Source: Malacoraja senta
Taxonomy: Eukaryota
Direction: 5' to 3'
Length of the DNA: 64,000 nucleotides
Assembly: GCA_038087875.1 (NCBI GenBank)
Contig: CM075994.1
Location: 8,124,001-8,188,000, forward strand
Part shown: piece by piece, positions 5,033-61,361 of the stretch
Layout: every line of letters begins with the position of its first letter
Numbering within the stretch: position 1 is the stretch's first letter
The notes under the pieces: generated by a model
The model's database searches: none
What the model was told of the DNA's origin: nothing
What the model saw: the letters and a program-made list of their open reading frames with translations, nothing else
Made by a program: the position numbers and the translations under genes

Positions 5033-5159
5033 GTGAGGAACGGAAGTGCCCCTGTGATCCTACAGAGGGCAGAACTTCTTCACAGCATACAGAAGACTGG
5101 AAACATGGACAGGTTCATCGGCAGCACCTTGTACATCGCGGCAGAGGTGTCGGACGGCA
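5033..5159 (+). CDS. Gene A exon (exon 9 equivalent, MG3): VRNGSAPVILQRAELLHSIQKTGNMDRFIGSTLYIAAEVSDG
   Basis: ccccattag| ... A|gtaagt; phase 0-1; GxxLYIAA motif (C4 GLRLYVAA). Confidence 0.92.
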
Positions 5160-7070: not shown

Positions 7071-7183
7071 AACACACCGAGAAGAAGGTTGTGGACAATA
7101 TAGCGTTCCGGCTCTCTCACTTCAACATCAGCTTCACATCAATGAAACCCTATTTCACACCAGGAGCTCGATTTTATATCCCG
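7071..7183 (+). CDS. Gene A exon (exon 10 equivalent, MG3/MG4): HTEKKVVDNIAFRLSHFNISFTSMKPYFTPGARFYIP
   Basis: atttctgcag| ... CCG|gtacaa; phase 1-0; YFxPGxxF motif. Confidence 0.92.
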
Positions 7184-9613: not shown

Positions 9614-9787
9614 ATCTCCGTGACCTATCCCAATGGATCCCCCGCCATCAACGTGTCGCTGCATGTCAACCTCACCATCGTAGAGGAAGAGGTGATCAAG
9701 GATTCGATTGAAGGGACAACGGACCAGCTCGGCGAGATGATCTTCTCATTGACGGTTCCTGTAAAAGCGCACATTCTCAACGTCACG
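9614..9787 (+). CDS. Gene A exon (exon 11 equivalent, MG4): ISVTYPNGSPAINVSLHVNLTIVEEEVIKDSIEGTTDQLGEMIFSLTVPVKAHILNVT
   Basis: ctttacag| ... ACG|gtacgt; phase 0-0; VTxPxGSPA and TDxxG motifs. Confidence 0.93.
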
Positions 9788-12753: not shown

Positions 12754-12945
12754 GCCAGCGCTGGAAGTGGGTCCGGCCAGACTGAGAAGAAGCACGGGAC
12801 GGTGGAGAGACACGTGTCTGACAGTGGGAGGTATATGCACATCAATGTACCTCAAGCACTCTTGTACCCTGAAGATGCCATCACCGTCCACCTGACGGCT
12901 CTGGGTCTGCTCTCTGACGATGACGTCCAGTACTACTACTACATG
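12754..12945 (+). CDS. Gene A exon (exon 12 equivalent, MG4/MG5): ASAGSGSGQTEKK...RYMHINVP...DVQYYYYM
   Basis: long pyrimidine tract and ctcag| ... ATG|gttagt; phase 0-0; ends in YYYM as C4 does. Confidence 0.93.
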
Positions 12946-18995: not shown

Positions 18996-19190
18996 GTACT
19001 CGGTAAGGGCAGGACGCTGGACATCCAAAGGGTGGAGAGAACGTCAGAGACCTCGTTTGAGCTGCTCATCACCACAGCCATGGTGCCTTATTTCCGCATC
19101 GTGGCTTATTACCCCGTGAACAACGGACGAAGGTGGAGCATTGTGGCCGACTCAGTGCGTGTGGAAGCGGAGAGTCTATGTGATACCAAG
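18996..19190 (+). CDS. Gene A exon (exon 13 equivalent, MG5): VLGKGRTLDIQR...MVPYFRIVAYY...IVADSVRVEAESLCDTK
   Basis: ctgtgcag| ... AAG|gtgggc; phase 0-0; PxFRxVAYY and VADSV motifs; retains the interchain-disulfide Cys. Confidence 0.95.
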
Positions 19191-23190: not shown

Positions 23191-23204
23191 ATTCCCAGTT
23201 TCAG

Positions 23205-23345
23205 GTGCACTCGGTGTCCCACCTGCCGGATCTTCACCAGCTCCAGCTGACGGTCCTGTCTGACACTCCAGCCCAGATCTTCGTGAAGACCACGGATATG
23301 AGGCTGAAGCCTTGGGAGGGAGACGACTCCATCACCCACAGGAGG
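23205..23345 (+). CDS. Gene A exon (exon 14 equivalent, MG6-beta/LNK): VHSVSHLPDLHQLQLTVLSDTPAQIFVKTTDMRLKPWEGDDSITHRR
   Basis: tttcag| (alternative in-frame acceptor giving start 23199) ... AGG|gtaagg; phase 0-0; divergent but in the expected position. Confidence 0.8.
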
Positions 23346-26424: not shown

Positions 26425-26630
26425 TTTACTAAAGGTAAGTCCTTTAATTCTGAGTCTGTGCCCTTTGGTTCTGGACTGATGGAAATATCCTCTCTACATA
26501 CACTCCATCCAGGCTCCAGCGAGGTACACTATTCATTTTACCTCGGTACACGTGACAATCATAAACTGAACTAAAAATAAAAATGAAAACCAAGAAATTG
26601 GTGTGATAAGCTGCTCTCTGTTTGGCCCAG

Positions 26631-26760
26631 GTGTTTGAAGATCTGAATTCGACCGATATTGGTCTGTCATCTGGAAGTGGCAGTAATCCTGCAAGTGTCT
26701 TTAAGGATTCTGGATTAATCTTCCTCTCCAATCTAATGACGCCATTTCCAGTGCCAGTTG
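26631..26760 (+). CDS. Gene A exon (exon 15 equivalent, LNK): VFEDLNSTDIGLSSGSGSNPASVFKDSGLIFLSNLMTPFPVPV
   Basis: tttggcccag| ... G|gtaaga; phase 0-1; aligns to C4 VFEAMNSYDLGCGPGGG...VFQAAGL; not in the ORF track. Confidence 0.92.
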
Positions 26761-28101
26761 GTAAGAGGATGCTAAATGACTCCCTGGTTTAGTTTAGCAC
26801 AGTGGCGCAGCGGTAGAGTTGCTGCCTTACAGCGCCAGACATGCGGGTTCGATCCTGACCACGGGTGCTTGTCTGTACGGAGTTCTCCCCGTGACCTGTA
26901 TGGGTTTTCATCAGGTCATAAGTGATGGGAGTAGAATTAGGCTGTTCGGCCCATCAAGTCTACTCCGCCATTCAATCATGGCTGATCTATCTCTCCCTCC
27001 GAACCCCATTCTCCTGCCCTCCCCGTAACCCCCGACACCCGTACTAATCAAGAATCTATCTGTCTCTGCCTTAAAAATATCCACTGACTTGGCCTCCACA
27101 GCCTTCTATGGCAAAGAATTCCACAGATTCACCACCCTCTGACTAAAGAAATTCCTCCCCATCTCCTTCCTAAAAGAACGTCCTTTCATTCTGAGGCTTT
27201 GACTTCTGGTCCTAGACTCTCCCACTGGTGGAAACATCCTCTCCACATCCACTCTATCCAGGCCTTTCACTATTCCATATGTTTCAATGAGGTCCCCCTG
27301 TTTCAATGAGGTCCCCGCTCATTCTTCTAAACCCCTGTGAGTACAGGTTCTCTGAGAACTTCGGTTTTCTCCCACACTCCAAAGATGTACAGGTCTGTAG
27401 GTTAATTGGCTTGGTGTAAATGTAAAATTATCCCTAGTGTGTGTGGGGCCATGTTAATGTGCGGGGATTGCTGGTCGGTGCAGGCTCGATGGGCCAAAGG
27501 GCCTGTTTCCCTGCTGTGAAAAAAAAAAGATTCAGCGTGGAAACAGGCCCTTCGGCCCACCGAGTCCGCACTGACCAGCGATCCCCGCACACTAATACTA
27601 TCCTACCCACACTAGGGACAATTTTACATTTAATTTACATTTACAGCCAAAAATCTGTAGCCTCCCTTTGATCTGGTATTTTGTTGGTTCACATGCTTGA
27701 TCAATGGTGTCTTATCATTAATGTTTCATTATTAGTAATGTTTAGTGTTTTCTGAGTCATTCGTAACAGTCACTGTATGTCATGTTGTTACTTGTGGGCG
27801 GAGCACCAAGGCAAATTCCTTGTATGTGAATACTTGGCCAATAAACTTACTTACTTACTTACTTACTTTATCAAGCCAATTAACCTACAAACCTGGACGT
27901 CTTTGAAGTGTGGGAGCAAACCGGAGCACCCGGAGAAAACCCACGCAGGTCACGGGGAGAACGTACAAACTCCGTACAGACAGCACCCGTGGTCAAGATT
28001 GAACCCAGGTCTCTGGCGCCGTGAGGCAGCAACTCTACCGCTGCACCACTGTGCCGTCCCCACTTACTAACTTTCACCAACCAATGTTTCTTGCCTTCCA
28101 G

Positions 28102-28143
28102 TTTTAAATTTGAAGCAGAGGCAGGAGCGCTTGTGGAGAAATG
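28102..28143 (+). CDS. Gene A 42-nt exon (position of C4 exon 16): (V)LNLKQRQERLWRN
   Basis: tttcttgccttccag| ... G|gtaagt; phase 1-1; unique sequence island between repeats. Confidence 0.72.
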
Positions 28144-28760
28144 GTAAGTTTGTTAAATAACATGCTCAGTGGTAGGATCGCAGAAGAATAGAACACGGGG
28201 TAATTAGTTTAGAGATACAGCGTGGAACAGGTCCTTCGGCCCACTGAGTCCACACCGACCAGCGATCACCGCGTTCACACACAAGTCCTACATTATCCCA
28301 CTTTCTCATCCACTCATTACACACTAGGGGCAATTTACAGAGGGGCCGATTAACCTGCAAACCCGCACGTCTTTGCAGAGTGATACAGCGTGGAAACAGG
28401 CCCTTCGGCCCAACTTGCCCACACTGGCCAACATGCCCCATCTACACTAGTCCTGCCTCTATTTTGGCCCCTATCCCTCCAAACCTGACCTATCCAAGTA
28501 CCTGTCTAACTGTTTCTTAAACGATGGGATAGTCCCAGCCTCAACTACCTCCCCTGGCAGCTCGTTCCATACACCCACCACCCTCTGTGTAGAAAAAGTT
28601 ACCCCTCAGATTCCTATTAACTCTTTCTCCCCTCACTTTAAACCCATGTCCTCTGGTCCTCGATTCCCCCACTCTGGGCAGGAGACTCTATGCGTCTAAC
28701 CGATCTATTCCTCATGATTTTATACACCTCTATAAGATCACCACTCATCCTCCTGTGCTC

Positions 28761-31212
28761 TAAAGATAAAGATTTAGAAGACCCTGGTTCATACAGAGCC
28801 ATTGGGCTGTTAAATACAGATACAAAAATACTAGCAAAAACATTAGCTAGAAGATTAAGTAAATATGTTAGTAAATTAATAAATGCGGATCAAACCGCAA
28901 GAGATATTCATGCAATCAATTATTTCATTGGACGCAGAAAAAGCATTCGATCAAGTGGAATGGGACTACCTCGTTAAAGTATTGCAAACATTTCAAATGG
29001 AAGAGAATTTTATCTCATGGGTAAAACTATTATATGACAGGCCCACTGCTAGAATATTAACTAATAACATGTTGTCCCCGAAATTTCAATTATCAAGGGG
29101 CAATAGACAGGGATGTTCACTATCACCTCTGCTATTTGCTCTTGTAATAGAACCTCTAGCTGAAAGCATTAGAACACATCTGAATATCCATGGTTATAAT
29201 ACAAAATACTCAAATAATAAAATATCATTATACGCAGATGATGTACTACTATACATCACAAAATCACAAATTAGTATACCAAATATATTAAATCTAATAG
29301 AGGAATTTGGATCCTTTTCAGGATATACAATAAATTGGAATAAAAGTGAAATTATGACGATAAAACCCCAAGACTCAACACACCTGTTAAAATTCCCTTT
29401 TAAAATTGCTACAGAAAAATTTAAATATTTGGGAATTGAAATTACTAGAAAATACAAATCTTTATTTAATGCAAACTATATGCCCCTACTTAATAAATTA
29501 AACACCCTGATTAAATTTTGGAAAACTCTTCCGATGTCTTTAATAGGCCGAATAAATGCTATAAAAATGATCTTTCTACCACAAATTTTATATCTATTCC
29601 AATCAATACCAATATACTTACCAAAAAAGTTTTTTTTTAAACTGGATTCCGATATCACAAATTTTATATGGGACTATAAATCCCATAGAATTCAAAGAAG
29701 ACATTTGTGCAAACCTAAAGAATTTGGTCGATTAACACTCCCTAATTTTTTGTATTATTATTGGGCAGCAAATGTCAAAAATGTGGTTCACCTGTTGGAC
29801 AACTCTGTCCAGCAGGTGGATTGGATAGTAATGGAGAGAGAGGATTGCTCCCCTTTTAATATAGGAGCGATCCTTCTCTCACCAATAAAATTGAATAATA
29901 CAATATACAGTAAAAATCCAATTATTCATAGTACAATTAGAATTTGGAAACAAATAAAATTAACCTTAAAATTAAGAAACCTATCGCTTCTCTCTCCAAT
30001 AGTTAATAATCTGTCGTTTAAACCATCTATTATAGATAAATCATTTACACACTGGGAAAGAATAGGAATTAAAACGTTTGGAGACATGTATGAAAATGGA
30101 ATTTTTTTATCATTTCACCAACTACAACTTAAATACAATCTGAGAAGTAATCAATATTTTAAATATTTTCAAATCCGTGACTATTTGAAAAAATATACAC
30201 AAGAATATCAAAATTTGTCTCCAGACCTATTAGACGAAGCAATGAATATAAAGGCGGAATCAACTAATTTAATATCATACTTGTATAATATCATCCTAAA
30301 TATAGAAATACCATCATCCGATAGAATTAGAAGAGATTGGGAACAAGAACTAGCTATAAAAATCTCGAAAGAGAGTTGGGATAAACACTTGCTATATGTG
30401 CACAAATGCTCGATCAATGTAAGACATATTCTAATTGAATTTAAAACTCTACATAGACTATACTACTCAAAAACTAAAATAAGTAAATTTTCCCAAATGT
30501 CTCCCCCATCTGTGATAAATGTCTATCCCAAGAAGCAACTATAGCACATTCCTTTGTTTTTTGTATAAAAATTCAAAAATTTTGGAATGAAATCGTTGAA
30601 ATTTTTACAAAATTATTTAAAATAAAACTGAAACCGAACGCAGAATTGATTATTTTTGGAACAATGGAAGCCAACTTTGAGCTGACTTCGTTCCAAAAGA
30701 GTTTCCTTAATTACAGCTTAATAATGGCAAAAAAACTTATACTTAAATTCTGGAAAAACGCTCCCACACCAACGATAAAAATGTGGATTTCTAATATGTC
30801 CGAACTGTTACACCTGGATGACATGAGATTCCTCTTAGCAGGCAATTCAGACCATTTCCAAAAGATTTGGTCTCCATTTATCAACTTATTACAAGCATAG
30901 GGTGCAACATAACTTTGATAATAAATGGTTTCAGGACCTGGTGAGGGGTGTGTAAAGATACAAAGTAGGTACATCCCTTTTTATCTTATTTTACCTTCTT
31001 ATATCTTCTGTTCTTCCTTTTTCTTTCTTTTTCTTTCTCCTGATCACTCTTTCACGCACTTACTTTCTTATCTAACTCTCTCTATTTTTCCTCTTTTTAA
31101 AGTTTAAAACAAGAAGTGGTACAGGAAATGTATTATGTTATTTTTGGCTTATATCGCTGTAATGTCCATTACTTCTAATAAATAAAATATTTTTTAAAAA
31201 AAGAAAAAAAAG
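28761..31212 (+). mobile_element. L1-clade LINE, 5'-truncated ORF2 (RT plus C-terminal Cys region), degenerate
   Basis: SYRAIGLLNTDTKIL, SLDAEKAFD, GNRQGCSLSPLLF, LYADD; AATAAA and poly(A) tail; interrupts a CR1 fragment. Confidence 0.95.
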
Positions 31213-31979
31213 GAATAGAGACCCAGCCTACTCAACCTCTCCCTGCAGCTCACACCCTCGAGTCCTGGCAACATCCTCGTAAATTTTCTCTGCACCCTTT
31301 CCAACTTGACATCATTTTTCCTATAACATGTTGCCCAGAACTGAACACAATCTCACAAATGTCTTGCATAACTGCAACATGACCTCCCAGCTTTGTGTGT
31401 AGGAAGGAACTGCAGATGCTGGTTTAAACCGAAGATAGACACAAAAGGCTGGAGTAACTCAGTGGGACAGGCAGCGTCTCTGGAGAGAAGGGGTGGGTCG
31501 AGACACCTGAAGAAGGTCTGAAGAAGGGTCTCGACATGAAAAGTCACCCTTTCCTTCTCTCTAGAGATGCTGTCCGACCCACTGAGTTATTCCAGCTTTT
31601 TGTGTCTATCTTTGGTTTAAACCAGCATCTGCAGTTCCTTCCTACTGATTCAAGAACAGCTTCTTCCCCTCTGTTATCGGCTTCTTGAACAGCCTCTCAC
31701 AAGCTAGGCTTGAATTCCAGATCTTCCAATCTACCTCGTTGCGGCCCTTGCGCTTTTTTAGTGTCTATCTCCCAACTTCTATACTCAAATACTCGGATGG
31801 ATGAAGGCCAAAGATAGACACAAAACGCTGGGGTAACTCAGCGGGACAGGCAGCATCTGTGGAGGGAAGCAATGGGTGACGTTTCAGGTCGAGTCCCTTC
31901 TTCAGACTGAAGGCCAATGTGCCGAAAAGCCTTTTTGACCACAATATGTAGCTGCACTCCCAGATCCCTCTACTCTACA

Positions 31980-32435
31980 ATACCAGGACTAGAGGGTGTG
32001 AGCTATAGGGAGAGGTTGAGTAGGCCGGGTCTCAATTCCATGGAGTGTAGGTGGATGAGGGGTGATCTTATAGAGGTGTATAAAATCATGAGAGGATTAG
32101 ATCGGGTAGATGCTCAGAGTTTTTTACCCAGAGTAGGGAAATCGAGGACCAGAGGACACAGGTTCAAGATGAAGGGGAAAAGATTTAATAGGAATCTGAG
32201 GGGTAACTTTTTCACACAGAGGGCGGTGGGTGTATGGAACGAGCTGCCAGAGGAGGTAGTTGAGGCTGGGACTATCCCAACGTTGAAGAAACAGTTGGAC
32301 AGGTACATGGATAGGACAGGTTTGGAGGGATATGGACCAAACACAGGCAGGTGGGACTAGTGTAGCTGGGACATGTTGGCCGGTGTGGGCAAGTTGGGCT
32401 GAAGGGCCTGTTTCCACACTATGACTGTATGACTC
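31980..32435 (+). mobile_element. CR1-type LINE 3' fragment
   Basis: RGDLIEVYKIMRGLD...TRGHRFK. Confidence 0.88.
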
Positions 32436-32553
32436 TCCAGTTTCCCGACCATTCCCTGTGTAAGTGTGTGAATGGTGAGGGCAGCTGTAAATAAGGTTGA
32501 GAGTGAGGGGACACATGAGATGCTGCAGTAACCTTGATGTCTCTCCACCCCAG

Positions 32554-32613
32554 TCAAAGGACGGGCGAAGGTTATCATCACACCGAAGGACCAAGGACCA
32601 TCCGGAGATGAAG
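32554..32613 (+). CDS. Gene A 60-nt exon (position of the C4 anaphylatoxin exon 17): (V)KGRAKVIITPKDQGPSGDE
   Basis: ctctccaccccag| ... AAG|gtaact; phase 1-1; unique island. Confidence 0.68.
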
Positions 32614-32910
32614 GTAACTTTCAGCAAACTCTTTACAAAATCCGTTCTGGACATTTCTCCATCCACCTGCTTTGTTTGGGGTTCAGATTTAGAGATACAG
32701 CATGGAAACAGGCCCTTCGGCCCACCGAGTCCACGCCGACCATTGGTGAACCGTTCCCACGCTAGTTTTATGTGATCCCACTTTCTCATCCACGCCGGGA
32801 CAATTTTTTCAGAAGCCAATCCACGTACAAGCCCGCACGTCTTTGGGATGTGGGAGGAAACCGGAGCACCTGGAGGAAACCCACACGGTCACAGGGGGAA
32901 CGTGCAAACT

Positions 32911-32948
<38 letters not shown>

Positions 32949-32961
32949 ACACACACACACA

Positions 32962-33034
<73 letters not shown>

Positions 33035-34181
33035 TCACTCACTCACTCACTCACTCACACACACACACACACTCTCTCTCTCTCTCTCTCTCTCAGACAG
33101 TGCAGAAGCTCAGAATTGAACCCGGGTCTCTGGAGCTGTGAGGCAGCAGCTCCACCCACTGCGCCACCGTGTCACGTGCACTGAGGTGCAGTCAAAAGCT
33201 TTATTTCGCATGTTAATGCCCAGACCAGACAATACCGAAGATAGACACAAAGTGCTGGAGTAACTCAGCGTGTCAGGCAGCATCTCTGGAGAGAAGGAAT
33301 GCGCGACGTTTCGGGTCGAGACCCTTCTTCAGACTGAGAGTCAGGGGAGTGGGAGACACAGAGATATGGAAGGGTAAGGTGTGAAAACGACAGATCAAAG
33401 GGGACATTGATCAAAGATACATTGTTAGCTGAGGGGAAGGTGACAACGAGGCGTACAATCAATAAAATGTAATCAGGAGGACAGTGAAACTAGTCGTAGA
33501 ACTAGGGAGTGGGTGGGATGGAGAGAGAGGTAAAGGAAGGGTTACTTGAAGTTAGAGAAGTCAATGTTCATACCGCTGGGGTGTAAGCTGCCCGAGCGAA
33601 ATATGAGGTGCTGTTCCTCCAATAGGACATTAACATTATCCTACATACTAGGGACAATTTACAGTTTTACTGAAGCTAATTAACTTACAACCATGCGCGT
33701 CTTTGGAGTGTAGGAGGGAACCAGAGATCCCGGAGAAAACCCACGCAGGTCACAGGGAGAACGTACAAACTCCGTGCAGACAGCAGGCATAGTCAGGATG
33801 GAACCCGGGGTCTCTACCGCTGCTCCACCTAAAGACTCTAGATCATGATTAGTACTCCACTATGCTTCCATCTGTTATCAGTCATCTGAACCATCCTACC
33901 ACAACCAGAGAGCAGCCCTGAACTACTATCTACCTCACTGGAGACCCTCGGACTATCCTTGATCAGACTTTACTGGCTTTACCTTGCACTAAACGTTATT
34001 CCCTTATCATGTATCTGTACACTGTGGACGGCTTGATTGTAATCAGGTCTTGTCTTTCCGCTGACTGGATAGCACGCAACAAAAGCTTTTCACTGTACCT
34101 CGGTACACGTGATATTAATGAACTAAACTAATAAGCTAAACTAAACTAATCACCTCTCTCTGCTTTCTCTCCCCTCCATAG

Positions 34182-34257
34182 TTGAATGGGTGAAGCCTCT
34201 GTTCCGAGGCACCTCAATGTGGCAGTTCAATACACCTCCGGGAAATAAAACCTTCAG
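34182..34257 (+). CDS. Gene A exon (exon 18 equivalent, MG6-alpha): (V)EWVKPLFRGTSMWQFNTPPGNKTF
   Basis: long pyrimidine tract and catag| ... CAG|gtacgg; phase 1-2; degenerate VRSxFPExWLW motif. Confidence 0.82.
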
Positions 34258-37873: not shown

Positions 37874-37941
37874 GTTGACGTTTGACCCCCATCCCCTTGA
37901 ATCCTGGGATCTCCAGGCCCTCAGCCTCTCAGAGGAGGACG
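37874..37941 (+). CDS. Gene A exon (exon 19 equivalent, MG6-alpha): (R)LTFDPHPLESWDLQALSLSEED
   Basis: ccttgcag| ... G|gtgagt; phase 2-1; aligns to C4 [23 protein letters not shown]. Confidence 0.9.
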
Positions 37942-39624: not shown

Positions 39625-39749
39625 GTCTGTGCCTGGCGAGCCACATGGTTGTGCAAGCAGATGGCGTGAGGTCCCAAACGTCTGGCATGGCACATCGGGA
39701 GGAAATGAGCGGACAAGGACACCCACCGACTGGGGAGGATTTGGCCTAG
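39625..39749 (+). CDS. Gene A last coding exon (exon 20 equivalent): (G)LCLASHMVVQADGVRSQTSGMAHREEMSGQGHPPTGEDLA-stop
   Basis: ctgttgaag| acceptor, phase 1; GLCLA matches C4 GLCVA; TAG at 39747-39749; donor AAG|gtacta after 39757. Confidence 0.8.
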
Positions 39750-39764
39750 CGCAGAAGGTACTAG

Positions 39765-40328
39765 TCAAGTCAAGTCAAGTCAAGTTTATTCGTCACATAC
39801 ACATACGAGATGTGCAGTGAAATGAAAAGTGACAATGCTCGCGGACTTTGTGCAAAAAAAAAACAAAAACAAACAACAAACTACAAACAGAATGGAAGAA
39901 TAGAATCACATATTCTTTTACATATTAAATATTGTGGGCGGAAGGAAAAAAAACGGGGAAAAAACAGCAATTTTAAAAAAAGCATTCGAGTGGTCCAGTA
40001 AAGTTAGTCCCTGGTGAGAGGAGTTTACAGTCCTAATGGCCTCTGGGAAGAAACTCCTTCTCAACCTCTCTGTTCTCACAACATGGCAACGGAGGCGTTT
40101 GCCTGACCGTAGCAGCTGGAACAGTCCGTTGCAGGGGTGGAAGGGGTCTCCCATGATCTTATTGGCTCTGGAGTTGCACCTTCTGATGTATAGTTCCTGC
40201 AGAGGGGCGAGTGAAGTTCCCATAGTGCGTTCGGCCGAACACACTACTCTCTGCAGAGCCTTCTTGTCCTGGGCAGAGCATTTCCCAAACTAGATTGTAA
40301 TATTTCCGGACAAGTTGCTTTCTACTAG
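39765..40328 (-). mobile_element. Rex1/Babar LINE 3' fragment
   Basis: HPCNGLFQLLRSGKR...RRSFFPEAIR; (ACTTG)n tail. Confidence 0.85.
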
Positions 40329-44713: not shown

Positions 44714-44885
44714 GCTGATCCACTCTTGGACCTTCTGAACGGATGGATGAAGATATTGAGAAGATACCTGCGTCCTACCAGAGAGATTCCTGGAAGGCCT
44801 GGGGTTCCCAGATGGTTGGACATTGCCGCTGAGCAGAAATTGCGTCCACACGCCACTTGTAACCAAATAAAATCGTCCATGACTT
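44714..44885 (+). other. Probable non-coding terminal exon (3' UTR) of gene A
   Basis: ttccttattgcag| acceptor; unique sequence; AATAAA at 44856-44861 followed by a T/GT-rich tract. Confidence 0.6.
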
Positions 44886-46499
44886 CTGAACCTTGTTTCC
44901 GCTGTTCTTTCGTCCGACGCTGACCTCCCGTGGACAAACTGGTCCTCCATCGTTCCCACCATGGCGGCACGGTGGTGAAGCGGGTAGAGTCGCTGCCTCT
45001 CTCTGGTTGCCAAACACTTTAACTCCCCCTCCCGTTCCCACACCGACCTTCCTGTCCTGGGCCTCCTCCACTGTCAGAGTGAGGCCCAGCGCTAATTGGA
45101 GGAACAGCACCTCATATTTCACTTGGGCAGCTTACACCGTTACTTCCTTTAATTCTGAGGCTGTGACCTCGAGTCCTAGACTCTCCCACTAGTGGAAACT
45201 TCCTCTCCACATCCACTCTATCCAGGCCTTTCACTATTCGGTAATCATGTATAGTCTTTCCGCTGATTAGATAGCATGCAATCGTAAAGTCTTCTTAAAG
45301 ATAGTCCGAGGGCCTAAAGTAACTAACTTGAGAGGGTTAGGTGGGAATGCAGGATCAATAGAAGATAAAGGAAGTAGGCCACATGCAGGCAGGTGGGATT
45401 ACGTTTAGGACAGACACTGTGGGCCGAAGGGCCTGTTCCTTCAATGAGAAGGGCAAGACGGTGGCTCAGCAGTACTTACATAGAAACATAAAATTGGTGC
45501 ATTTGGCCCTTCGAACCAGTACCGCCATTCATTGTGATCATGGCTGATCATCCACAATCAGTACCCTGTTCCTGCCTTCTCCCCATATCCCTTGATTATG
45601 TTTGCCCCTAGAGCTCTATCTAACTCTCTTTTAAATGCATCCAGTGATTTGGCCTCCACTGCCCTCTGTGGCAGGGAATTCCACAAATTCACAACTCTCT
45701 GGGTGAAAAAGTTTTTTTCTCATCTCAGTTTTAAATGGCCTCCCCTTTATTCTAAGACTGTGGCCCCTGGTTCTGGACTCGCCCAAGATTGGGAACATTT
45801 TTCCAGTATCTAGCTTGTCCAGTCCTTTTATTGTTGCCGCCTTTTACAGCACTTACAGCGTCAGAAACCCAGGTTTGATCCCGACTACGGGCGCTGTCTG
45901 TACGGAGTTTGTACGTTTTCCCCGTGACCTGCGTGGGTTTTCTCCGAGATCTCCGGTTTCCCCCACATTTCAAAGACGTACAGGTTTGTAGCTCTGAACA
46001 GGTCTGAACAGGTCTGAAGAAGGGTTTCGGCCCGAAACGTTGCCTATTTCCTTCGCTCCATAGATGCTGCTGCACCCGCTGAGTTTCTCCAGCATTTTTG
46101 TCTACCTCAGGTTTGTAGCTTAATTGGCTTGGTAAATGTTTGTGTAAATTGTCCCTAGTGTGTGTAGGATAGTGTGCGGGGATCGCTGGTCGGTGCAGAC
46201 TTGATGGGCCGAAGGGCCTGTGTCCCTAAACTAAACCATGGGACCTGTTAGCTGGTGTGGGCAAGTTGGGCCGAAGGGCCTGTTTCCACGCTGTATCACT
46301 CTATGCCTCTGTAACCACTTTGAATTGGAAGGGCGTCACGGTGGCGCAGTGGGTAGAGTCGCTGCCTCACAGCGCTGGAGACCCGGGTTCGATCCCGACT
46401 ACGGGCACTGTCTGTACGGAGTTTGTACGTTCTTCCCCCCGTGGCCTGAGGAGGTAAGTAGGAGCTAGCACGGACTCAATGGGCCGCATGGCCTCCTCT

Positions 46500-46696: not shown

Positions 46697-46761
46697 ATGG
46701 AGACGCTAGCCATTCTTCTTTGCCTTTCTTTGTGGATATCCCTCACGGAACAAAAGCCTCC
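46697..46761 (+). CDS. C4: Gene B (complement C4-like) exon 1, signal peptide: METLAILLCLSLWISLTEQKP
   Basis: Kozak CCACCATGG; hydrophobic leader; QKP as at the C4 mature N-terminus; CC|gtaagt, phase 2. Confidence 0.92.
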
Positions 46762-48783: not shown

Positions 48784-48979
48784 GTATTTGATTACAGCTC
48801 CGAAACTAATTCGTGTGGGTGTGAAGGAGTCGGTCACTGTTCAAATCTTTGAGGCAGAGAGCAGTCTCGATGCTTCTATTTACTTTCGCAATCCAAAAAA
48901 CACGGAGATGATCTGTTCAGAGAAATACAGTCTGCAACTGAACCACGCAAACAACTTTACCCAAGTCTTGTTTGTCCAG
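48784..48979 (+). CDS. C4: Gene B exon 2 (MG1): YLITAPKLIRVGVKESVTVQ...FRNPKNTEMICSEK...VLFVQ
   Basis: cccctcag| ... CAG|gtaact; phase 2-0; matches C4 FLRNPSRNNVPCSPK including the MG1 Cys. Confidence 0.94.
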
Positions 48980-52923: not shown

Positions 52924-53101
52924 ATCACTCCGGAAAATGTGAAGAAGTGTAAATCCAGGGGAAGGATGTTGTACGTTAATCTTGTGGCAGAGATACCAGC
53001 GCTGTTTTCCCTTCAGAAAAAGGTCCAGCTGCAACTTCGACCCAAACCGTACTTCAACTTCATCGAGACTGACAAGCCGATATACAGACCCGGAGAGACA
53101 G
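52924..53101 (+). CDS. C4: Gene B exon 3 (MG1/MG2): ITPENVKKCKSRG...FIETDKPIYRPGET
   Basis: tgttacag| ... G|gtagga; phase 0-1; FIxTDKPIYxPG thioester-protein family motif; second MG1 Cys. Confidence 0.95.

Positions 53102-59363: not shown

Positions 59364-61361
<1,998 letters not shown>

Follow-up and report, generated by a model that had tools for sequence, protein, structure and literature searches.

A 64,000-nucleotide stretch of the Malacoraja senta genome (the window; C18:8124001-8188000 of a 1.94-Gb genome, where C18 marks whole-contig coordinates on CM075994.1 and positions without a prefix are those of the window) carries a gene, here called gene A, that appears to be a reduced descendant of complement C4. 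From its anatomy as read in the sequence, we hold with high confidence that gene A is an intact C4-derived gene ending at the border between MG6 and MG7. It encodes a signal peptide, the MG1-MG6 ring and LNK; MG7, CUB, the thioester domain, MG8 and C345C are absent, and the stop codon comes after MG6. The initial annotation read the gene as a C4 that is normal apart from its linker, and overlooked the loss of the entire alpha/gamma half. Gene A has a paralogue next to it, gene B, and related proteins fall into a type A that includes gene A and a type B that includes gene B. Judged from aligned gene models, this ring-only, C4-derived gene pair is conserved in cartilaginous fish (sharks, rays and probably chimaeras), and we regard its conservation as a real finding.

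Structure and predicted fold of gene A

In the spliced model gene A has 21 exons on the plus strand and 20 introns, all GT-AG, which give a single open frame of 769 amino acids with five cysteines and zero thioester motifs. Exons 1-7 (signal peptide, MG1 and MG2) lie upstream of the window at C18:8105395-8122936 and were traced with the Mobula orthologue; the signal-peptide exon at C18:8105395 was reached with the same query, and the signal peptide was judged by eye. Searches with tblastn using orthologues, together with the spliced model, place exons 8-11 (MG3 onward) at 1407-1494, 2616-2715, 5033-5159 and 7071-7183, exons 12-15 (to MG6-beta) at 9614-9787, 12754-12945, 18996-19190 and 23199-23345, and exon 20, the second MG6-alpha exon, at 37874-37941. 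Exon 16 (26631-26760) covers the LNK region, where a leucine stands in place of the LNK cysteine found in C4 (DLGC). Exons 17 and 18 encode the linker considered in the next section and are followed by exon 19 (34182-34257), the first MG6-alpha exon.

Gene A ends one exon past the MG6-alpha pair. With the MG4/MG5 exon (12754-12945) as query, two proteins among 83 candidates were recovered, both of them short skate models stopping after MG6, and these located the terminal exon of gene A at 39625-39749. This predicted exon 21 would encode the last MG6 strands, a conserved cysteine and a short unconserved tail ending in TAG (39747-39749), and ATTAAA at 39924 is the sole poly(A) hexamer near it. 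Over the following 82 kb (C18:8162000-8244000) two C4 alpha-chain queries gave zero matches at E<=0.5, whereas the shark query of the two gave eight matches in a neighbouring C4 gene, gene D. TED_complement had 48 matches in the genome, those on C18 being confined to the three full C4 genes, and the assembly is gap-free from exon 1 of gene A through exon 3 of gene B. Two other continuations were rejected: the open frame at 44714-44890, which resembled a terminal exon, is in the wrong phase and matched no orthologue, and read-through from exon 20 into gene B would join phase 1 to phase 2, gene B moreover having its own signal exon.

The predicted fold is that of a ring. The AlphaFold2 model of the Mobula orthologue, built from an alignment of 50 rows, has a predicted local distance difference test (pLDDT) score of 82.4 and a predicted template-modelling (pTM) score of 0.78, in which six beta-sandwich domains are predicted and the MG6-alpha strands are formed. 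In this model the segment matching exon 18 is predicted as a short strand, and residues 650-668 (pLDDT <50) and the tail as disordered. The best Foldseek matches were C4b, C3, cobra venom factor and C5 chains, with template-modelling (TM) scores of up to 0.76. Pfam recognised MG1, MG2, MG4 and A2M_BRD in the orthologues, and MG3 went undetected although 118 residues align there. We predict that the gene A product is secreted and that its MG6 is closed by the short linker and a retained cysteine pair.

MG1 is encoded in gene A by two exons (106 and 81 nucleotides; C18:8107694-8108950), compared with one exon of 196 nucleotides in gene B, a difference that suggests an intron gain within MG1 in type A. 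The MG1 of gene A has a five-amino-acid gap relative to Rhinoraja, and no micro-exon was found that explains it.

The linker between LNK and MG6-alpha

Between the LNK exon and the first MG6-alpha exon lie two small phase 1-1 exons with canonical AG/GT ends, 28102-28143 (42 nucleotides) and, by prediction, 32554-32613 (60 nucleotides), as the initial annotation had proposed. Scoring of 401 open phase 1-1 AG..GT candidates from 26761-34181 against the linkers of six orthologues put acceptors 32554 (201) and 28102 (183) first, followed by one at 140; the top-scoring row at acceptor 32554 was a 192-nucleotide read-through, and orthologue lengths favour the 60-nucleotide donor. The two linker blocks are also present in the RefSeq models of three skates. 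Four public runs were aligned to 26550-28300 only, two of which, X3 and X4, come from a relative and were guessed to be RNA. Exon 16 has exon-confined coverage, with one contig each, in X3 and X4; in X4 the exon 17 bin has a depth of 11.4, which equals 16 x 42/59 and thus corresponds to a contig of depth 16, the same depth as that of the exon 16 contig. Runs X1 and X11 (6% of X11 was read) gave no coverage of exon 16 or 17. The coverage in X3 and X4 is weak support for these exons.

The sequence features of C4 activation that had been reported missing from this region are indeed missing. A six-frame genome search with an ANATO profile hidden Markov model scored 28 candidates and gave 11 matches, none of them in the window, although it did recover ANATO in three C4 genes nearby. 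Pfam, applied to the three plus frames of 26760-34182, likewise gave no ANATO and returned a reverse transcriptase of a long interspersed nuclear element (LINE) and weak unrelated matches only. In the 769-amino-acid product RxKR/RxRR (and with it the RRRR form) and CC are absent, the linker has no cysteine, and the exon encoding the acidic alpha'-N-terminal (alpha'-NT) stretch is shortened to 76 nucleotides, compared with 115 and 130 nucleotides in two local C4 genes. Because 26 of the 27 family linkers lack a furin consensus (the chimaera alone keeps one, RAKR) and the MG6 cysteine pair is kept, the single-chain product that had been anticipated is supported as a prediction. The LINE fragment (RVT_1, E 2e-28) occupies about 28770-30900 on the plus strand, in the intron between the two small exons.

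The initial annotation had also taken the exon count, which matches that of C4, as a sign that C4 exons had shrunk. The count itself stands, as the local C4 genes have two phase 1-1 exons at the linker site (69+195 and 72+192 nucleotides), but equal number does not show shrinkage, because in seven of eight comparisons the small exons were no more similar to C4 exons than expected by chance; the eighth (p=0.003) was not repeated with the second C4. Gene B has a single exon here (51 nucleotides), and four of the 14 type A linkers, all from sharks, hold a copy of their own MG6-alpha (0/500 shuffles were as good), so that exon number in the linker appears labile. The proteins concerned are P0004, P0007, P0182 and P0183, in which the copy is degenerate; it is near-perfect in Heterodontus. 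Exon 18 as a copy of the terminal exon was rejected (0/14 linkers at p<0.05), and a common origin of exon 17 and the one linker exon of type B was unsupported (1/14 at p<0.05).

Across the family the linker is the least conserved internal segment, with a mean identity of 31% in type A compared with 50-65% for the domains. It varies from 28 to 84 residues and is near neutral or acidic in several members. The motifs RQER and RLWR are private to this species, with none in Amblyraja, Leucoraja or Rhinoraja, and RxxR is found in three of 14 type A linkers and in none of the 12 of type B. In the light of this comparison the basic sites look incidental, and the linker is most simply read as the spacer remaining after the activation module was lost.

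Family, descent and genomic neighbourhood

A homologue search unrestricted by length returned 260 proteins at E<=0.001, of which the eight best were 363-899 amino acids long; long proteins began at rank 9, with 29-32% identity. Another search, confined to 422-1346 amino acids, gave 23 matches at E<=1e-30. We aligned gene A with 26 homologues from sharks, rays and one chimaera, of which 13 belong to type A, 12 to type B and one is from Callorhinchus. Excluded from this alignment were P0014, two catshark isoforms with frame shifts, one partial model from GenBank, further isoforms, and sister models that are nearly identical. All 26 homologues stop 10-47 residues past the MG6-alpha cysteine, at the MG6/MG7 border, most type B members after 13, and the 13 type A homologues have equivalent C-terminal ends. 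A thioester motif is absent from all 26. The MG6-alpha cysteine is present in 27/27 rows and its MG5/MG6-beta partner in 26/27; we take this pair to be the beta-alpha disulfide of C3 and C4.

The gene A product is 85% identical to a protein of Amblyraja and 82% identical to one of Leucoraja. Its identity to the Mobula orthologue is 56%, compared with 62% (160/259) and 57% (566/985) between local C4 and Mobula C4 in tblastn matches, where the alpha total includes overlaps and one stray match. Since skate-manta identity is near that of the neighbouring true C4, the comparison argues for gene A being a maintained gene.

Phylogenetic analysis of the beta region places the family within C4. In an IQ-TREE analysis of 28 chosen rows, seven of them from the family, the family forms a clade (100/100) inside C4 (100/99), and FastTree gave the same placement in C4 with a support of 100 for 83 rows, 11 from the family. 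The stem branch leading to the family is 0.57, and identity to C4 is 24-27%. The branch of the chimaera is long (1.34), and its inclusion in the family is probably best regarded as the least secure point. Raw phmmer scores favour mammalian C3 over C4 (192 vs 150 bits), so the 'C3-like' names in RefSeq follow similarity and not the tree. Full beta-region matches to C3, C4 and C5 score 136-192 bits, compared with 31-35 bits for A2M.

The order of genes on C18 is a minus-strand C4, gene A, gene B, a partial C4 copy, a full C4 (gene D, plus strand) and another C4 (gene E, minus strand, traced from LNK to MG8). In elasmobranchs the c4 genes lie in the major histocompatibility complex (PMC10751288). 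Gene B, on the plus strand, begins with its own signal-peptide exon (46697-46761), followed by an MG1 exon (48784-48979; 196 nucleotides) and an MG1/MG2 exon at about 52925-53101; it extends beyond the window to at least C18:8231142 and lacks MG3 and ANATO. Its terminal exon was not found up to the assembly gap that follows the last exon seen, and probably lies in that gap. The loss of MG3 is general in type B, where 9-15 residues replace 118 in all 11 models covering the region, and the type B product would be a ring of five domains. In an intron of gene B, at 59370-61358, a (TG)n repeat continues without interruption for about 2 kb and may be an assembly artefact.

Other features of the locus concern the C4 genes themselves. 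The stretch C18:8244574-8279000 is a partial copy of gene D (MG1 to MG6-beta), with nothing C4-like in the next 106 kb; it apparently arose by a recent, incomplete duplication and is separate from genes A and B. For the minus-strand C4 (C18:8093199-8105395), no exons of MG1-MG3 and just the final part of MG4 were seen up to the start of gene A; the assembly has a gap at 8095852 and may therefore lack the 5' half of this C4. Genes D (C18:8386000-8526000, plus strand) and E (C18:8610000-8692000, minus strand) are near-identical inverted copies. In the gap-containing stretches examined, gene E showed no thioester-motif exon and no beta-chain exons upstream of LNK.

Possible roles and relation to known systems

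C3, C4 and C5 are viewed as machines in which the alpha chain does the work and the beta ring is the frame. ANATO, the thioester and C345C have established roles as anaphylatoxin, in opsonin attachment and as convertase platform, and because all three are absent, the gene A protein would be unable to serve as opsonin, as anaphylatoxin precursor or as convertase platform. The role that we tentatively put first is that of a decoy, in which a secreted beta ring would compete at the convertase-substrate site of MG4-5. The single-chain MG1-MG6 ring would be secreted and would dock through its MG4-MG5 face on C3 or the C3 convertase, the partners that we infer; since the docked ring would carry no protease, it would compete with convertases for substrate docking without catalysis, and complement activation might thereby be damped. 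Both paralogues retain MG4-5 and lack C345C. In the human C4b2b-C3 complex (PMC12847986) the larger substrate contact (1309 Å2) is that of C4b MG4-5 on C3 MG4-5 and is blocked by compstatin, the second substrate contact uses MG7 and the alpha'-NT, and C2b is held via C345C.

Several points weigh against this proposal. The MG7 and alpha'-NT elements of the second substrate contact are lost, and the ring may bind too weakly for inhibition; with just 24-32% identity of MG4 and MG5 to those of shark and ray C4, the docking surface may not survive. In type A MG5 is the best conserved domain at 65%, a point in favour of the proposal, but in type B, also at 65%, it falls below LNK (68%) and MG6-alpha (66%). 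RNA support is thin, as two of the four runs cover exon 16 and one covers exon 17, with no joint row displayed. The family homologues are automated gene models, and one of them, from Chiloscyllium plagiosum (P0014), goes from LNK into a PRY/SPRY domain. Binding and inhibition would both follow by analogy with the human complex and are put forward tentatively. The broader proposal of an ancient two-member regulator family, in which C4 was cut to its beta ring so as to block the MG4-5 site of compstatin-class drugs and one member has lost MG3, we consider doubtful.

Nearly as likely as the decoy is a partner outside the convertase pathway. The ring would then be a real secreted protein serving as a scaffold for a CRIg-like receptor, a microbial surface, a complement-evasion protein of microbes or plasma cargo. 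A long stem (0.57) and 24-27% identity to C4, with C4-like rates thereafter, are as expected after a change of function; type B, without MG3, has an altered ring geometry, and in solved structures, going by their titles, the C3 beta ring is bound by CRIg and by pathogen proteins. However, no partner is indicated by any analysis, and genes A and B still adjoin full C4 genes on C18, a position that agrees with co-regulation alongside complement and also with a simple tandem origin.

It is improbable that the basic linker acts like a bait region, so that cleavage by a protease would switch the shape of the protein, or would trap or report proteases. Bait regions are disordered and variable, and the linker is predicted to be disordered (pLDDT <50 at 650-668 in the Mobula model) and is variable (31% in type A); the RAKR of the chimaera member points the same way. 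The suggestion of the initial annotation that the linker occupies the bait position is topologically right, and according to PMC9156758 LNK and the bait region are one insert in MG6 and monomeric A2M-family inhibitors require the thioester. Its suggested function is poorly supported, as the thioester is absent, along with MG7, CUB and MG8, which move on cleavage, and the scarcity of RxxR (3/14 in type A, 0/12 in type B) and the near-neutral or acidic charge of several linkers count against it. Moreover, the retained MG6 cysteine pair would keep the cleaved halves together. Very improbable is a decayed partial C4 duplicate or mispredicted fragment, like the partial copy at C18:8244-8279 kb: although the locus has such a recent copy and assembly gaps, two skate RefSeq models are 5'-incomplete and two of four runs lack exon coverage, the 769-amino-acid frame is open across 20 canonical introns with no gap from exon 1 of gene A to exon 3 of gene B, the end point is common to 26/26 homologues, and the family is a separate old clade and not a recent copy.

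The chimaera lineage and that of sharks and rays split roughly 400 million years ago. A ring-only gene retained at C4-like rates in sharks, rays and probably chimaeras would imply that selection can act on a function of the ring itself, and such a gene is a natural single-chain construct for testing ring function. If the decoy proposal is true, a type of complement regulator has been built out of an effector. Annotation is also corrected for genes that are now filed as 'C3-like', 'venom factor-like' or 'C4 (partial)'.

Searches of the full-text literature, outside whose coverage most subscription journals lie, gave no description of a beta-ring-only C4 family. The supplement on sawfish chr34 in PMC10751288 (Verissimo et al. 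2023) lists three 'C4 (partial)' genes between two full C4 genes (rows 269-271), whose complement C3-like and C4-B-like names match the Pristis type A and type B proteins; from names and order these rows probably include orthologues. They are labelled only as partial there, and section 8 of that paper treats them neither as complete genes nor as a family. Najafpour et al. 2020 (PMC7768046) report two short matches to c4 in the whale shark that they could not resolve. Loss of ANATO alone has a precedent, because the same source describes sea bream C3.1.6 and C3.1.7 without ANATO; those are C3 proteins of ordinary length and structure, whereas gene A has lost everything after MG6. Zebrafish c3.7 and c3.8 were rejected as a further precedent, because c3.8 does not lack ANATO (PMC4057122). 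Anchovy C3-like models (Engraulis encrasicolus; XP_063060641.1/P0063 cluster) of 747-800 amino acids have MG1-MG6 and neither ANATO nor TED in Pfam; unlike gene A, they belong to the teleost C3 clade, keep a basic site and continue into MG7, and are possibly an independent truncation in the teleost C3 lineage.

With A2ML1 and A2M (PMC9156758) gene A shares a predicted single chain and an unstructured segment after LNK inside MG6. Unlike A2M-family inhibitors, it has no thioester domain and no MG7-CUB-MG8, and its sequence is much closer to C3, C4 and C5. Its closest relation is to C4, with which it shares MG1-MG6, LNK, the MG6 cysteine pair, the exon phases around LNK and MG6-alpha, the clade and the tandem site. 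In contrast to C4, it is without a furin site, ANATO, MG7, CUB, the thioester domain (CxEQ), MG8 and C345C, has lost the LNK cysteines, and is 769 amino acids long compared with about 1690. The sequence lacks the domains needed for cleavage by C1s/MASP, covalent deposition and convertase formation. The gene A product would thus be incapable of the activation, covalent attachment and C2 binding typical of C4, and by the same anatomy gene A qualifies neither as a functional C4 nor as an inhibitor of the A2M type.

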